Assembly (NCBI GenBank): GCA_036351155.1
Contig: JAZBOO010000021.1
Location: forward strand, 1 to 16,001
Source: Candidatus Krumholzibacteriia bacterium
GTDB taxonomy: Bacteria > Krumholzibacteriota > Krumholzibacteriia > LZORAL124-64-63
Direction of reading: 5' to 3'
Length of the DNA: 16,001 nt
Position 1 is the first letter of the stretch. Each line of letters opens with the position of its first letter. A program made the position numbers and the translations under genes. Below, piece after piece: positions 227-15,155 of the stretch. Below the pieces are notes generated by a model that had not been told where the DNA came from, did no database searches, and worked only from the letters and a program-made list of their open reading frames with translations.

Positions 227-454
227 TCAGGAAGCCTTGCGCTCAAGCATTTCGGCAATCCACACCTTGATGATGGACTGACGAGTCACACCAACTCTCT
301 TCGCTTCGCGGTCGAGCGATTCGATCATCCACGTGGGAAAGTCCACATTGATGCGCTTCGTTTCCTGATTCAACCTGCGAGCTTTCGAAGTATCCAGTTC
401 CGAAGTGATGTCTCCACCACTCTCGAATTTCTTGTCAAAATCGCTAGCCTTCAT
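227..454 (-). CDS. brnA: BrnA/CopG-family (RHH) type II antitoxin, 75 aa
   Basis: MKASDFDKKFESGGDI...KRINVDFPTWMIESLDREAKRVGVTRQSIIKVWIAE is the characteristic CopG-type BrnA sequence. GAGGAGG SD precedes ATG 454, so the start is 454 rather than 550. Confidence 0.88.
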   Translation of the reverse strand: MKASDFDKKFESGGDITSELDTSKARRLNQETKRINVDFPTWMIESLDREAKRVGVTRQSIIKVWIAEMLERKAS

Positions 455-496
455 AAATCCGAACCTCCTCTTTTCGGGAACGAATTCGAACTCCAC
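444..496 (-). pseudogene. brnT: Internally deleted BrnT-family toxin remnant
   Basis: GTG GAG TTC GAA TTC (MEFEF, BrnT-like N-terminus) is joined out of frame to CGT TCC CGA AAA GAG GAG GTT CGG ATT TAT GAA GGC TAG (RSRKEEVRIYEG*, BrnT-like C-terminus), which overlaps the antitoxin start as in intact brnTA operons. Confidence 0.7.
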
Positions 497-515
497 TTCG
501 CCCCCTGATGAGTTT

Positions 516-550
516 AGGTATAATTTATATACCTTTTTGAATCCTGTCAA
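516..550 (-). promoter_or_regulatory. Sigma70 promoter of the brnTA operon with palindromic operator
   Basis: TTGACA (545-550), 17 nt spacer, TAAATT. Inverted repeat AGGTATA-N5-TATACCT (516-534) overlaps the -10. Confidence 0.7.
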
Positions 551-1844: not shown

Positions 1845-2031
1845 CATCGCAGACCTTCTGCTGGCCCGACTCCTCCGCTGACGTCAGCGCAACAAGACAA
1901 CCCGCCGAGATGTGTCCCCCACCCTCGACACCAACCGGATGAAGTAAACCCCCGACCCCATGTCCTGCCCCTGATCATCCCTCCCATCCCAGACAACCTG
2001 GTGCTGGCCGGCACCGAACCAGGCCTCGGCC
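1845..2031. repeat. Direct repeat copy 2 (3' end plus ~39 bp downstream of the beta-helix/FlgD gene)
   Basis: Matches 855-1041 at offset 990. Confidence 0.95.
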
Positions 2032-3323
2032 AGGGATCGGATCTTCAAACCCCGCAAATCATAAACCCCCATGCTCACCTGGCCGGAGTTCACCAGTTCA
2101 AACGAAACCGTGGTCCTGGGATTGAAGGGATTGGGCGCGCAGGACAGGCCCACGCCAAGCGCCAGCGGGGCAGGCTCGACCACTCCGGTCAGACCCCCGC
2201 AATACTCGTACGCCCCACGATCGATGGCCGCGCCGCACCAGCGGGGATGTCCCGCCAGGTCTTCACTGGCCAGCTGAACGGAAAGGGCATGGTCCAGGCC
2301 GCGGTCAATCCCGGGCGAACCGGCGGTGAGCTGGTAGGGAGCTGTTCCCTGCCCCGCCCAGCCCGGATCCTGGTCCACGTTCGTCGCGTTGCCCGCGTAG
2401 CTTTCCAGGTTGTTCCCGAAGTTGTAAAAATCCTTGGTCTCGACCACCTGGGCGCCGGAATAGTGGTTCGTTATGTTGTTCCGGATAATGTTGTTGATCA
2501 GGGGAATCTTGCCGTTGAAGTTCTCGACCGCCCCGCAGACGAAGAAGGCGCTCTCCTCCTCGCACACATTGCCCACGATGGTGTTGTTGATAAGCTTGGG
2601 GTAGCTGTAGACGCTGAACAGGGCGCTGCCGCGCAGGGAAACCACATTGTCCCGGAACAGGTTGCCTGCCAGGACTGGCGACGCCCCGTATCCCACATAA
2701 ACCGCGCCGCCATAGACCGCCCGGTTCCCGCGTAAATCGCAGCTGGCCACCGCCACCTTGTCGACACCCACGAAGGACACGGCCCCACCCGTTTCCGGAC
2801 GCATGGTGCCCCCAGTGGCTCCGGCTCCTCGGTCTTCCCCGGCTCGCGCCACGGCCCCTTCGAAGAGACAATGTTCGAGGCGCGACCAGCCCAGCTGTGC
2901 CGGAATATTGTGGAAATCGACGCCATCCCAGCCCTCGGCTGCGAAACCCGCAGCCGGCCGGAATGCAATGCGCTGTTCAGGCTCCCCCACGGCCCACAAC
3001 CGACCGTTAACCAGAACACGATAAAACCCCGCGAACTCGACAATTGTGCCCGGCGCAATGGTCAAGGTGGCCTCGGCTTCCACCAGCACATCTCCGGTCA
3101 CCCGCACCACATCTGCGGCCCAGGTGGTGGGTTCAGAGATGGCTCCCGCCACGGTGATGTAGGACCCCGACAGCACCGCCCCAGGGTCCGGCGCCACCCC
3201 CTGGCTGGGTGCAGAAGGAGCACTTGCCGGCCCCGTCACGCTCTGGCAGCCATACCCTTCGGCATCGAAGCCCGGTTCCACGCGGAAATCGAGGTTTTCG
3301 GGATCTCGCAGCCTCACTTCCAC
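1884..3323 (-). CDS. Conventional gene call for the C-terminal part: right-handed beta-helix repeats, choice-of-anchor-Q-like motif, FlgD-Ig-type domain
   Basis: GGAVYV/GNRAVY/NNTIVGN repeats; YQLTAGSPGIDRG...DLAGHPR...IDRGAYEY; APNPFNPRTTVSFEL...VYDLRG...VWDGRDDQG...SGVYFIRL. It has no signal peptide of its own. Confidence 0.85.
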   Translation of the reverse strand: MEVRLRDPENLDFRVEPGFDAEGYGCQSVTGPASAPSAPSQGVAPDPGAVLSGSYITVAGAISEPTTWAADVVRVTGDVLVEAEATLTIAPGTIVEFAGFYRVLVNGRLWAVGEPEQRIAFRPAAGFAAEGWDGVDFHNIPAQLGWSRLEHCLFEGAVARAGEDRGAGATGGTMRPETGGAVSFVGVDKVAVASCDLRGNRAVYGGAVYVGYGASPVLAGNLFRDNVVSLRGSALFSVYSYPKLINNTIVGNVCEEESAFFVCGAVENFNGKIPLINNIIRNNITNHYSGAQVVETKDFYNFGNNLESYAGNATNVDQDPGWAGQGTAPYQLTAGSPGIDRGLDHALSVQLASEDLAGHPRWCGAAIDRGAYEYCGGLTGVVEPAPLALGVGLSCAPNPFNPRTTVSFELVNSGQVSMGVYDLRGLKIRSLAEAWFGAGQHQVVWDGRDDQGQDMGSGVYFIRLVSRVGDTSRRVVLLR

Positions 3324-4064
3324 CCCGACGATGTTGTTCCAGGGAGCCGAACCGGCTTCCCGCCATTCCTGGGGAATGACTCAGCCGTATTCTCACAAGA
3401 AGGAATAGTGATGCAGCGGAATGGGGTTCAGATCGGGGTCCCCGTAGTAGGTCCAGTTGTCCCGCACATCGGGCAGACCATAATCACCGGTCTGCACCGA
3501 GGCGGCGATGGCCGTTCCGGTGGGAATCAGATCGCCGGCCACCCCGTTGGTGGGGATGTAGTCGAGGCCCGTGTCCTGCGTGTCGATGATGAGGTTGCGC
3601 TCGACGGTGATCCCTTGCCCCGCACCCTGCAGCCTGACCCCGTAATCGTGGGCTTGATAAAACGTGACAAACTTGACCGACCCGGTGGGGCGAATGCTGA
3701 GCCCTGGATCGTTGTCTCCCCGAAACCGGATATTCCCGTTGATGATGATGCAGTCGGAGATATCCATTCTGTTGTCGCAATAAGACAGGCAGATCTGTTC
3801 GCCCTGCAGGTCGAGCACCGCGCCGTTGCCCACGATGCGTACATCGGCCCCCTCTTCTTCCATGATGAAGCGGTTGGATACCGGGCTGAAGACACGCCCG
3901 ACCAGCAGGCCTCCGGTGTAGGTGACCCCGTTCTCGAGTTCAACATAACGGTCGTAGCCATTGGCTGCGGGGGCGGCCTCGTAGGCTTCCTTGAGGGTGA
4001 TGGCCGGCGACTGCGCCACAAGGAAGGTCATCACAAAAAGCAGGGCGAGATAAACCGAGCGCAA
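1884..4064 (-). CDS. Candidate secreted selenoprotein, 726 aa: signal peptide, beta-helix domain with U-E-Y-G-U (U224, U228), second beta-helix/choice-of-anchor-Q-like domain, FlgD-Ig-type C-terminal domain
   Basis: TTG start at 4064 with GGAG SD. One reading frame to TGA at 1884, interrupted only by TGA at 3393-3395 and 3381-3383. Hairpins lie directly 3' of the UGAs. Confidence 0.7.
3342..3380 (-). promoter_or_regulatory. Putative bacterial SECIS element(s): two adjacent hairpins 3' of the in-frame UGAs
   Basis: mRNA GUCAUUCC-CCA-GGAAUGGC (3380-3362; alternative fold UUCCCCA-GGAA-UGGCGGGAA), then GGG-A-AGCCG-GUU-CGGCU-CCC (3361-3342). Confidence 0.55.
3393..4064 (-). CDS. Conventional gene call for the N-terminal part: secreted beta-helix-like protein ending at the first UGA
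   Basis: Signal peptide MRSVYLALLFVMTFLVAQSPA, followed by beta-helix-like strands (VRIVGNGAVLDL, MDISDCIIINGNI, ITVERNLII). Confidence 0.8.
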   Translation of the reverse strand: MRSVYLALLFVMTFLVAQSPAITLKEAYEAAPAANGYDRYVELENGVTYTGGLLVGRVFSPVSNRFIMEEEGADVRIVGNGAVLDLQGEQICLSYCDNRMDISDCIIINGNIRFRGDNDPGLSIRPTGSVKFVTFYQAHDYGVRLQGAGQGITVERNLIIDTQDTGLDYIPTNGVAGDLIPTGTAIAASVQTGDYGLPDVRDNWTYYGDPDLNPIPLHHYSFL

Positions 4065-7852: not shown

Positions 7853-9265
7853 TCACCGCACCAGCATCAACTTCTGACTGGCCACCCCGGCGGTCGATTC
7901 AAGACGCAGCAGGTAGGTCCCCGACGGCCCATGGCGGCCATCATTCCCGGTCCCGTCCCAGACCAAGGTCCGGGCACCCGATGGGCTCCACCCCTCCTCC
8001 AGGGTGCGCACCAGACGGCCTGAAAGGTCGTACACGGCCAGCGTGATCCCACCTGGGGCCTCGAGTTCAAAGCTGATGGTGGTCCGGGGGTTGAACGGAT
8101 TCGGTGAAGCCGGATGGAGCGCGATCATGCTCCGGTTAAGGTCCGGCACCGCGGACAGATCCTCCCGCTGCTGCACGACCTGCAACACCAGGAACTCGGC
8201 CGGCAACAGGGGCGCCCATCCCACCTGCATGATGGTGCGTCCCTCGGCGATGTCCAGCTCGGTCATGGTCGAGAAGTCACAGCGGGCGAAGTAGGCGTCG
8301 CTGCCCGTGGTGCCCTGGAACCAGCCCGACAGGAAAAGGGACTGCAGGAATACCTCAAGCTCGCTCTCGATCGCGAACCAGGTGAGCGGTTCGTTGGGTT
8401 CGGTCAAGCACCAGGCCGTCCCCTCGACAATGGACTCTTCGATGCACAGCCCCATGCGCCGCACGGCCACGTATTTCCACTCGGGATCGGTGGCCAGGGT
8501 CCGGGAGCCCCAGATGCGGATGCCCGACAGGTTGCGGATGGCGTTGACACCCAGGGGGTTCAGCTGATCCTGCTCCGGGGTGGTCACCGGGTAGGTCACC
8601 CCCGTGGCGGTGGCGATCACCCCGATGGGGGAATCGTTGGCCTCGGTGGCGCTGAAGGCCCCGGCCACGAATCCGCTGGGCGGCAGGGTCAGGGTGGTGC
8701 CCGTGGGAGAGGCCTCGATCCAGGGAAAATACAGAGCGGCAAACCCCTGGTCAGATCCCAGCAGGGCGCGCTGGGCCAAAATGTCGTTGATGGTGTCGGT
8801 GGGCGCAGCAGGGTCCAGGATCGCGATCCGGTCACCCGCGCTCTCGCAGTGGGCAATCATCGCCGCCTGGACCGCGGGGCTCGCGGCCCCCGGAATCGCC
8901 ACGATGGCAACCTCGTCCACATCCAGCAGCGCCTGCAACCCTGTCCGGGAACCGGGGCCGCCGTCGAACCCGATGAGGGTGGGGTCATCGGCGGCGCTCA
9001 CCCGCACCACCGCACACCGCACGCCGCCGTTGGCAAAAAACCCGGCCACCGAGGGGGCCAGATAGGGGTTGGTCAGCCCGGCGGTCGAGGCCCCGAACAC
9101 CGCCACGAACTCGGCGTAGCTGTCCAGCAGGACCGCCTCGTCCAGGGGGCCTTGTTCGGCCATCCCCACGAATCCCGCCTGCTCGGTGGGCACGCGGGAA
9201 ATGGGGACAGCAAGGGCGGGATACGCCGACACGAGCAGCAGAAGCAACAGGGCGAAGGATTTCAT
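7853..9265 (-). CDS. Phage tail-sheath-family domain fused to an N-terminal signal peptide and a C-terminal FlgD-Ig-type domain, 470 aa
   Basis: Signal MKSFALLLLLLVSAYPALA. Sheath motifs AGFVGMAEQGP, YLAPSVAGFFANGG, HCE...DRIAILD, AALYFPWI, PPSGFVAG, EQDQLNPLGVNAIR, IWGSRTL, WKYVAVRR, EPN, PAEFL (8168-9208). C-terminal domain SPNPFNP...VWDG...SGTYLLRL (7853-8167). Confidence 0.9.
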   Translation of the reverse strand: MKSFALLLLLLVSAYPALAVPISRVPTEQAGFVGMAEQGPLDEAVLLDSYAEFVAVFGASTAGLTNPYLAPSVAGFFANGGVRCAVVRVSAADDPTLIGFDGGPGSRTGLQALLDVDEVAIVAIPGAASPAVQAAMIAHCESAGDRIAILDPAAPTDTINDILAQRALLGSDQGFAALYFPWIEASPTGTTLTLPPSGFVAGAFSATEANDSPIGVIATATGVTYPVTTPEQDQLNPLGVNAIRNLSGIRIWGSRTLATDPEWKYVAVRRMGLCIEESIVEGTAWCLTEPNEPLTWFAIESELEVFLQSLFLSGWFQGTTGSDAYFARCDFSTMTELDIAEGRTIMQVGWAPLLPAEFLVLQVVQQREDLSAVPDLNRSMIALHPASPNPFNPRTTISFELEAPGGITLAVYDLSGRLVRTLEEGWSPSGARTLVWDGTGNDGRHGPSGTYLLRLESTAGVASQKLMLVR

Positions 9266-9339
9266 GATTCTTCCGATTCCGGGGTGATGGCCAAGGTCGA
9301 TGAACCCTGATGATACCACAACCGGAGAATTTTGGTCGG

Positions 9340-13916: not shown

Positions 13917-15155
13917 ATGGCACGCCTTACTAATCGCCTCCACGACAAGACCGTCAAGACCGCGAAGCCGAAGGACAAGAAGTACGAACTGCGCGACGGC
14001 AACGGCCTGGTCCTGCGCATCTACCCGAACGGCGAGAAGCGCTGGTACTACAACTACGACTTCCAGGGACGGCGTCGGAATATGATGCTGGGAGCGTATC
14101 CAGGCGTGACGCTGGCTGACGCCCGCCAGTTGCGCGACGACGCCCGCGGGCTCGTCAGTCAGAAGATCGACCCGCTGACGGCCAGGCAGGAGGCCGAGCG
14201 GGCTGCGAGGCTCAACCCGACTCTCCAGGAACTCGCAGCGCAGTACATGGCCTCAGCCGCCTTCAGGGGACTCTCGCAACGCTCCCAGGCCGACTACAGG
14301 CGCACATACGTGACCTACACCCCAGATCGGATCGCCCGGTTGAAGGTCAACGAGTTGGAGCCCTTCCACATCAAGGCGATCACGACCCCGATCCGTAAGC
14401 GCGGCGCGATGGTTGCGGCACAGCGCGCCCTGGCCCACCTGAAGAGCCTGTTCTCCTGGGCCAACGATGAGGCCGACATCGCGGTCAACCCGTGTGTGAC
14501 GCTTAAGATCAAGGTCACCCAGGTCTTCGACCAACGCGTCCTGGCTCCCGCGGAGATCCACACCTTCTGGCACACGCTCGACGGGTTCGAGACCCACCAC
14601 AGCATCAAGAACGCGCTCCGGCTGCAGCTCCTTACACTCACCCGCCGCGCCGAAGTTTGCATGGCTGAATGGAGTCACGTGGACTGGACCGAGCGAATCT
14701 GGACCGTCCCCAGCGCGAATGCCAAGAACAGCCGGGAGCACCGGCTCTACCTGACCGACACTGCCATCGCGGTCCTCAAAGCTCAGAAGAGCATCGCGGG
14801 CCGAAGCAAGTGGGTCTTTCCCAGCGTGCAGGATCCCCGAAAGCACCTTCCAGCCGACAGCGTCACCCAGGCCGTCATCAACAACCGGGGACTGTGCGCC
14901 TTCGAAAAGCCCTTCAACACGCACGATCTTCGACGGACTGCCGCGACCGAAGCCACCGGCAGCGGAGCACCCCGAGACCACGTCAAGCGCACCCTGAACC
15001 ACTCGCGGGCCGGGGATGTGACCGACCGGTACGACCGGTACAGCTACGACCGCGAGAAACAGGAGGTACTGAAGATCTGGGAGCGGCGGCTACTCGAGAT
15101 CGTTGCTTCGAATGACGAGAAGGGCGAAACGTCATGCAACACTATGGTCGTTTGA
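13917..15155 (+). CDS. P4-like tyrosine integrase with N-terminal arm-DNA-binding (DUF4102-type) domain
   Basis: YELRDGNGLVLRIYPNGEKRW...LGAYPGVTLADAR; catalytic residues in TLTRRAE (R), AKN (K), HDLRRT (H, R), LNH (H) and YDRYSY (Y). Confidence 0.95.
   Translation: MARLTNRLHDKTVKTAKPKDKKYELRDGNGLVLRIYPNGEKRWYYNYDFQGRRRNMMLGAYPGVTLADARQLRDDARGLVSQKIDPLTARQEAERAARLNPTLQELAAQYMASAAFRGLSQRSQADYRRTYVTYTPDRIARLKVNELEPFHIKAITTPIRKRGAMVAAQRALAHLKSLFSWANDEADIAVNPCVTLKIKVTQVFDQRVLAPAEIHTFWHTLDGFETHHSIKNALRLQLLTLTRRAEVCMAEWSHVDWTERIWTVPSANAKNSREHRLYLTDTAIAVLKAQKSIAGRSKWVFPSVQDPRKHLPADSVTQAVINNRGLCAFEKPFNTHDLRRTAATEATGSGAPRDHVKRTLNHSRAGDVTDRYDRYSYDREKQEVLKIWERRLLEIVASNDEKGETSCNTMVV

Follow-up and report, generated by a model that had tools for sequence, protein, structure and literature searches.

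A predicted exported beta-helix selenoprotein with two closely spaced UGA codons in a Candidatus Krumholzibacteriia bacterium

The DNA considered here, referred to below as the window, is the whole analysed stretch of 16,001 nucleotides (nt) of contig JAZBOO010000021.1 (assembly GCA_036351155.1) of a Candidatus Krumholzibacteriia bacterium, with a G+C content of 58.6%. Its minus strand carries a gene, running from 4064 to 1884, that, judging from its own sequence and those of its relatives, is almost certainly real and has two internal selenocysteine (Sec, U) codons. We hold it to be very probable that this is a single gene for an exported protein of 726 residues, in which UGA codons 224 and 228 (UGA1 and UGA2 below) are read as Sec by SelB and tRNA-Sec, steered by stem-loops within the next ~55 nt. 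The minus-strand frame from 4109 to 1884 is interrupted solely by TGA at 3395-3393 and TGA at 3383-3381; the junction reads ...LHHYSFL-TGA-EYG-TGA-VIPQEWREAGSAPWNNIVGVEVRLRDPENLDFRVEPG (as protein, …LHHYSFL-U-EYG-U-VIPQEWREAGSAPWNN…) and contains no TAA or TAG. An initial annotation, made from the DNA alone, had joined the two open reading frames (ORFs) on either side of this junction, and its description turned out to be correct in all details checked. The two ORFs do lie in one frame that is open apart from the two TGAs, and counting from the TTG at 4064, which GGAG precedes by 7 nt, returns the same 726-codon length and the same positions for U224 and U228. In-frame TGA occurs at codons 224, 228 and 727, the last being the stop, and TGG occurs 11 times. 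Homologs have open frames of ~720-780 amino acids, and contigs from two DNA runs (~93% alike) cover 1927-4005 and 2104-4064 with no indels.

The evidence that carries this gene model is the identity of the codons at the two positions in homologs. A six-frame search of 208 genomes of the window's phylum, with stops read through and the first 342 residues as the query, detected relatives in 36, the source genome included (27 of 90 genomes of family f1, 8 of 12 of family f3 and none in the other seven families). Among the 39 matches, 37 span the junction at 44-67% identity and all of these have in-frame TGA, two in 29 cases and one in 8; the two stop-free matches are contig-end fragments that end before the junction. 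In the 30 phylum loci that were aligned, the motif is FL-U-[E/S]-Y-[G/S]-U in 24 and L-C-[E/D]-Y-G-U in 6, and conservation continues unbroken past the junction (…P..W..AG.AP.NN..G.DP.L.DP..GDFR). Two genomes harbour two copies of the family each (contigs C10 and C6 of G166, C538 and C253 of G010), every copy having two in-frame TGAs.

Among GTDB species representatives, scanned to look beyond the phylum, 133 relatives were found. Codon pairs were read for the best 80 of these 133, whose record titles name metagenome-assembled genomes (MAGs) of Krumholzibacteriia, Eisenbacteria, Cloacimonadota, Fibrobacteraceae, Phycisphaerales/Planctomycetota, Latescibacterota, Gemmatimonadetes, Acidobacteriota and Armatimonadota; the pairs are TGC/TGA in 40, TGT/TGA in 19, TGA/TGA in 20 and TGT/TGC in 1. 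The phylum and GTDB sets overlap, and combine to 110 loci, mainly from Krumholzibacteriia, Eisenbacteria, Cloacimonadota and Planctomycetota MAGs, that represent 92 distinct junctions: 63 of the C-U type, 28 U-U and 1 C-C. The UxxxU motif described in the initial annotation is present in the window, with the refinement that C-x3-U is the commoner form in the family. The U-x3-U form is found mainly in Krumholzibacteriia and also in MAGs labelled as Cloacimonadota and Planctomycetota. Of 232 Cloacimonadota genomes, 56 hold a relative (E<=1e-60), mostly with one TGA, several with two and one with none. Eleven AT-rich loci (29-38% G+C) have TGT/TGC followed by TGA in 9 and TGA at both positions in 2.

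The second position is TGA in 30/30, 79/80 and 11/11 of the phylum, GTDB and AT-rich loci, the sole exception being TGC. At the first position only Cys or TGA was found; TGG occurs at neither position in any of the 121 loci examined, and nor does a codon for any other residue. This is the distribution, with TGA or Cys aligned at both positions and never Trp, Arg or others, that the initial annotation had put forward as support for Sec. Changes between Cys and Sec at the first position number at least eight on a tree of the N-domain from which the two motif columns were masked, and the EYG tripeptide between the UGAs is kept in homologs. Conservation across the junction is accompanied by purifying selection on both sides: for six pairs of U-U forms, the ratio of nonsynonymous to synonymous substitution rates (dN/dS, NG86) is 0.14-0.45 downstream, where one value is saturated, and 0.07-0.45 upstream. 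A natural Cys-Cys form, P0003, is an uninterrupted protein of 698 amino acids and matches locus L106. The recurrence of both codon positions in 110/110 loci places the pattern far above chance, and pairing of Sec with Cys is the criterion by which selenoproteins are recognised in the literature (PMC13188914 and PMC12013277).

The source genome (4.19 Mb in 405 contigs, 97.6% complete) encodes the apparatus that such a gene requires. The presence of selA, selB, selC and selD had been named beforehand as a check on the proposal, and selA (452.7 bits), selB (329.7 bits) and selD (362.3 bits) were all found above their curated cut-offs, together with a tRNA-Sec (66.5 bits against a cut-off of 47) with the anticodon UCA according to ARAGORN. 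The same program found 37 tRNAs, of which tRNA-Sec is the only one with a UCA anticodon; tRNA-Trp has CCA. The selD gene itself has an in-frame UGA (…FAKSAG-U-AAKLSPG…; G000:C334:1256-2173, minus strand, locus L019), with a small G-loop hairpin, AGUCC-GGG-GGACU, ~13 nt after it. Across the phylum, selA scores above cut-off in 199 of 208 genomes and in 125/125 of the high-quality ones. TGA also functions as an ordinary stop, as had been asserted for positions 227, 1527, 1884, 5471 and 7853, all of which are seen in the window; a further ORF ends in TGA at 15155, and others end in TAG at 1837, 6258 and 10710. Given this tRNA set, the ordinary TGA stops and the Sec machinery, a reassigned code is therefore not the explanation for the interrupted frame.

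The predicted protein is modular (Table 1). In the full-length model (predicted local distance difference test score, pLDDT, 87.8; predicted template modelling score, pTM, 0.81), an N-terminal helix at residues 2-15 is followed by a first beta-helix extending to ~275, a linker, a second beta-helix at ~296-622 and a beta-sandwich at 640-724. The helix is hydrophobic and fits a signal peptide, and homologs have similar leaders. The initial annotation had located the signal peptide upstream of the junction and an FlgD-type tail downstream, and this arrangement was recovered: the hydrophobic leader is at the N terminus, and FlgD_ig (PF13860), whose cut-off is 27 bits, scores 27.1 on the downstream ORF and 26.2 when the whole protein is scanned. 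The second beta-helix ends in a choice-of-anchor Q motif (NF041518, 27.2 bits against 25), and the type IX secretion system (T9SS) type A sorting model TIGR04183 reaches 20.5 bits, below its cut-off of 23. Modelling the N-domain separately, from a 95-row alignment in AlphaFold2, gave a pLDDT of 94.3 and a pTM of 0.92, so that the suggested modelling of the U-to-C fusion yields a high-confidence beta-helix protein. The short forms P0014, P0021 and P0030 (319-355 amino acids) consist of the N-domain and T9SS tail only.

Sequence profiles describe the N-domain sparsely. On the window protein, Pfam Beta_helix (PF13229) scores 19.8-20.1 bits, with 20.1 on the upstream ORF, below the gathering threshold of 25.9; among 95 family members searched at E<=0.01, Beta_helix matches 33 and DUF5123 12, none matches NosD (PF05048), and the remaining few Pfam hits are to sorting-tail families, in short database forms. 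NCBIfam gave no match to residues 1-588 of P0001 at E<=0.1, its matches being restricted to the choice-of-anchor Q motif and the tail. Foldseek returned nothing for the N-domain at E<=0.001, and a PDB profile search returned solely a 30-residue end motif, at E 0.097. Structural alignment with VIA-align was more productive, with 92 chains at Z>=8, the 50 listed all being beta-helix-type entries, none of them titled as a selenoprotein. The best match is the C-terminal domain of the polysaccharide lyase family 6 (PL6) alginate lyase BcAlyPL6 (PDB 7dmk, chain 7dmk_A; Z 14.4, root-mean-square deviation 3.4 Å over 196 residues), which differs in having just 13% sequence identity, the likeness being one of fold; pectate lyases, tailspikes, epimerases and NosD follow at Z 10-12.5. 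The modelled fold is a right-handed parallel beta-helix and, since the N-domain matches many beta-helices alike, it is generic and carries no functional assignment. A Protein Atlas comparison made with the Cys-Cys homolog P0003 likewise gave generic NosD/Beta_helix clusters alone, with low shared-feature counts.

The conserved motif, H-x4-[C/U]-E-Y-G-U, sits towards the C-terminal end of the first beta-helix; in the full-length model it lies after the strand at 220-223, in a loop before a short helix. In alignment A4, H219, L223, P231 and W234 are invariant and conservation is 90% or more at C224, E225, Y226 and C228 (A3 gives the same result). The functional centre would then be formed by the two chalcogen residues, four positions apart, and the invariant His219. 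In our first choice of mechanism, the Sec of the second position would attack and the Cys or Sec of the first would be its partner, forming a redox-active selenenylsulfide or diselenide; we favour such a pair because Sec occupies the second position in every locus except one, whereas the partner alternates between Cys and Sec, and rate its chance as close to, if a little short of, even. The beta-helix may offer a polymer, or a partner on the cell surface, a long face to bind to. In its successive coils, charged and aromatic residues are conserved at comparable places, which hints at a binding groove leading to the site.

The same gene model would also accommodate a soft-metal site (Cu, Ni, Zn, Hg or similar) coordinated by His219, Cys/Sec224 and Sec228, in which case the product would be a surface metal-binding protein or a metal-dependent enzyme. 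This ranks second, as a real possibility that we nevertheless judge to be on the improbable side. It draws on the presence of three potential ligands within 10 residues, on the invariant H-x4-[C/U]-x3-U spacing, which resembles that of the azurin copper loop, C-x4-H-x3-M, and on the conserved Glu and Tyr in between. The nearest Atlas clusters carry the Pfam label NosD ('periplasmic copper-binding protein'; 0.94-0.95, with just 130-151 shared features), which serves as a lead only. Furthermore, the UxxU double-Sec motifs in Table 1 of PMC13188914, in the part covered, belong to a metal-binding protein and to an FmdB-type putative regulatory protein. Set against these points, neither Pfam nor NCBIfam gave a match to a metal-binding family, NosD itself (7o0y, Z 10.2) is no better a structural match than dozens of other beta-helices, and no metal transporter or chaperone is among conserved neighbours in the flanks of 63 loci. 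Retention of Sec at the second position, save in one locus, is moreover the pattern usual for a catalytic redox Sec, and the selenenylsulfide/diselenide centre accordingly remains the reading that we would place first.

Insertion of Sec in bacteria depends on RNA structure, and folding of the aligned sequences predicts that structure resembling a Sec insertion sequence (SECIS) is present downstream of the UGAs. In the window's lineage the best SECIS candidate is hairpin B, and hairpin A is a possible SECIS for UGA1 (Table 1). In A2, an ungapped alignment of 77 sequences, 64% of the cells of hairpin B are paired, and its covariation score is 0.136 versus 0.079 in shuffles (0/500 as high) and no more than 0.090 in slid controls. 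Pair 39-51 of A2, formed by two wobble positions, occurs as GC in 19 sequences, AU in 9, UA in 9, CG in 5, GU in 5 and UG in 1, and is unpaired in 27. Hairpin A changes register from one lineage to another, which makes its covariation uncountable. In other lineages this stretch folds into hairpins of a different kind, CUGGCC-GGA-GGCCGG in many sequences of the Eisenbacteria type and …GUC-AGUUG-GGC… in Cloacimonadota. A strict rule was also applied to individual sequences: the stem had to be perfect, with 5 bp or more, three or more of them G-C, and the loop, of 3-8 nt and containing GU, had to begin 16-37 nt after the UGA. Reportedly, bSECISearch uses this distance window and the G in the loop as criteria. 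At UGA2 the rule is satisfied in 53/92 sequences versus 3003/32568 (9.2%) of the other in-frame positions of the same genes, and a looser rule, with G in the first two loop positions, in 82/92 versus 26.1% elsewhere. Compared with the remaining tiles of these genes, the 45 nt after UGA2 also fold more stably (mean z -0.72, 28% in the lowest decile), support that the kinship of the sequences overstates.

A number of results weigh against the gene model. The strict rule fails in 39/92 sequences, and only 13/28 (strict) or 15/28 (loose) of the U-U forms have a hairpin suitably spaced from UGA1. An alternative hairpin, II, is 79% paired, yet does not beat its +1 slid control. RNAalifold recovered only four weak pairs from an ungapped alignment of 30 sequences, because the hairpins shift register between lineages; Rfam, scanned with 3200-3500 at E<=10, returned nothing, and the family as a whole yielded no one conserved SECIS. 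Five junction-spanning database entries have W where the family has Sec. Finally, conserved neighbours are lacking, with no ORF family present in more than 7 loci in the 3-kb flanks of the 63 loci, and genome context points to no pathway.

The scarcity of hairpins suited to UGA1, together with the placing of the loop of the window's best hairpin ~40 nt from that codon, would be explained if UGA2 alone were efficiently decoded as Sec and UGA1 of the U-x3-U forms were mostly a leaky stop or attenuator, with little full-length protein made. We consider this improbable. The U-U type is represented by 28 distinct junctions under several phylum labels, the Cys/Sec switches at the first position number at least eight, and the codon there is TGA or Cys throughout, never another stop or residue. 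In addition, dN/dS is as low downstream as upstream, and hairpin A lies 12 nt after UGA1, near the ~13 nt spacing seen in selD.

It is very improbable that UGA is instead read as Trp, Gly or Cys, whether through a reassigned code or through near-cognate read-through. The five W-bearing entries are what such a reading has in its favour (P0004 LWEYGW, P0108 LWEHGW, P0014 LCDTGW, P0021 LWATGW and P0030 MCNTGW). These entries are gene calls, made apparently on AT-rich sequence to judge by their amino-acid make-up, and each W is probably a TGA to which the caller applied table 4. A metagenome scan with P0004 found no locus, and the closest relatives of P0108 in the 232 Cloacimonadota genomes are 36-57% identical. 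Against decoding as anything other than Sec stand the single UCA tRNA, which is tRNA-Sec, and the CCA anticodon of tRNA-Trp; the use of TGA to terminate the gene itself and five other ORFs of the window; and the occurrence of TGG in 0/121 loci.

Public databases represent the family poorly. Among 1.84 billion representatives just 105 proteins match at E<=0.001, and most entries end at query residue 238 or 242, or start at 244-262, boundaries which indicate proteins cut at the two UGAs. That gene callers would split the gene had been anticipated, and public calls indeed cut it exactly at the two UGA codons. A word-indexed search of 5.8 billion clusters gave two full-length entries, all four of its hits being unnamed in any source. 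That gene callers split the gene and most entries are halves is all that speaks for a nonsense pseudogene, or for two independent genes sharing a frame by chance, a reading that is hardly credible and is contradicted by the recurrence of the same two codons in 110/110 loci from MAGs that bear the labels of several phyla, the conserved tripeptide between the stops, the uninterrupted Cys-Cys protein P0003 (locus L106) and dN/dS below 0.5 on both sides of the junction.

Table 1. Coordinates in the window of the selenoprotein gene and its predicted features
Feature	Position	Strand	Remarks
Whole gene	1884..4064	-	726 sense codons and TGA stop at 1884-1886; probable start TTG 4064
Signal peptide, residues 1 to ~21 (MRSVYLALLFVMTFLVAQSPA)	4002..4064	-	Predicted from N-terminal helix; cleavage site approximate
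N-terminal right-handed beta-helix domain, residues ~22-275, bearing the Sec loop	3240..4001	-	AlphaFold2 model
Conserved loop H219-x4-U224-E-Y-G-U228-x2-P231-x2-W234	3363..3410	-	Conserved in alignments A3 and A4
UGA codon 224, first position	3393..3395	-	Cys or Sec in homologs
UGA codon 228, second position	3381..3383	-	Sec in nearly all homologs
Hairpin A, GUCAUUCC-CCA-GGAAUGGC	3362..3380	-	RNAfold per sequence; directly after UGA2, 12 nt after UGA1
Hairpin B, GGGAaGCCG-GUU-CGGCUCCC	3342..3360	-	RNAfold; loop starts 28 nt after UGA2
Second beta-helix, residues ~296-622, GGA-type repeats, choice-of-anchor Q motif at end	2199..3179	-	Full-length model; NF041518
C-terminal beta-sandwich sorting domain (FlgD_ig / T9SS type A-like)	1887..2147	-	PF13860, TIGR04183

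Export of the protein to the cell surface by a T9SS is plausible, given its predicted sorting tail. A PorU homolog, the sole T9SS component searched for, is encoded in the source genome (499 bits against a cut-off of 420; C99:19423-22842). The genome contains 148 matches to the protein, mostly to its C-terminal tail; the N-domain has no paralog there, tails alone matching. Taken together, the mostly tail-directed matches and the PorU homolog indicate a very large predicted T9SS secretome. Another tail-bearing ORF lies within the window, at 7853-9319 on the minus strand, where FlgD_ig (40.2 bits) is combined with the subtilisin-like domain Phage_sheath_1 (46.2 bits). At 897-1040 on the minus strand, within an open frame of 81 amino acids, a stretch of 48 residues shares 77% identity with the final 48 of the gene's own sorting tail; it lies ~850 bp past the gene's stop, on the far side of a Gp49/HTH pair, and may have been left behind when a tail was duplicated or displaced. 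That pair consists of overlapping plus-strand ORFs at 1183-1527 and 1505-1837 with Gp49 (DUF891) and HTH_3 domains and looks like a toxin-antitoxin-type pair. Elsewhere in the window are a CopG-like ORF (227-550, minus strand) and a tyrosine integrase (13917-15155, plus strand; Arm-DNA-bind_3, Phage_int_M and Phage_integrase), and no tRNA genes were found in it.

Known selenoproteins provide partial parallels. The UxxU metal-binding protein NF041115, the FmdB-type UxxU protein and TsoB (rhodanese/DsbD-like, UxxxxU) resemble the window protein in having two close UGAs, alternation of Cys and Sec in relatives and presumably nearby RNA structure (Table 1 of PMC13188914). They differ from it in that the window protein has another fold, an x3 spacing and a surface location via T9SS, and no NCBIfam model of theirs matched. 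The FCYXU-type TonB-dependent receptor reported with deep-Sep (PMC12013277) is likewise a Sec protein exported past the cytoplasmic membrane and found by Cys/TGA pairing; it is a beta-barrel with one Sec in CxxU, whereas the window protein would be a soluble or surface-anchored beta-helix with C/U-x3-U. Cargo proteins of the T9SS type A class (TIGR04183 / PF18962; FlgD_ig-like) share the C-terminal beta-sandwich tail and the company of a PorU homolog in the genome, and the difference there is the TIGR04183 score, which falls below cut-off (20.5 versus 23 bits).

The selenoprotein families of the lists that were checked are mostly thioredoxin-like redox proteins. Table 1 of the 2026 review PMC13188914 holds 119 prokaryotic selenoprotein families, and no such family as the present one is among them, one stretch of the table lying outside the comparison; the strings 'helix', CxxxU, UxxxU and UxxxC are absent from its text. 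Nor does such a family appear among the new families of deep-Sep in the covered part of PMC12013277, in the main text of BSepDB, whose family Table S2 lies outside the comparison, or in NCBIfam 20.0. The literature searched yielded no beta-helix selenoprotein, no T9SS-exported selenoprotein and nothing relevant for selenoproteins of these phyla. The candidate is therefore a new selenoprotein family, subject to Table S2 of BSepDB and to Haft and Tolstoy 2025, whose families were compared only via the covered part of Table 1 of PMC13188914. The encoding of Sec is ordinary; what is unusual is the fold, the location, the C/U-x3-U motif and, in the window's lineage, the adjacent Sec codons.

In its fullest form, our proposal is of a cell-surface enzyme with a selenenylsulfide/diselenide (or His/Se/Se metal) centre on a polysaccharide-lyase-like beta-helix, which would carry out extracellular selenium chemistry on polymers or on chalcogen or metal species in anaerobic bacteria of the Fibrobacterota-Chlorobiota-Bacteroidota (FCB) group and in Planctomycetota, with an overlapping or shared SECIS serving two Sec residues 12 nt apart in the U-x3-U forms. 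So detailed a picture is speculative and, in its entirety, unlikely. The family itself is widespread, with relatives in 36/208 genomes of the phylum, in 56/232 Cloacimonadota genomes and among GTDB representatives (133), and its systematic mis-annotation as two hypothetical halves means that it is missed by annotation pipelines and by secretome surveys of uncultured degraders. Switching between Cys and Sec at the partner position, combined with UGAs 12 nt apart, makes the family a natural system for studying two Sec insertions from one short stretch of mRNA. If the proposal is true, anaerobic cells would be carrying out selenium-dependent chemistry at their outer surface.

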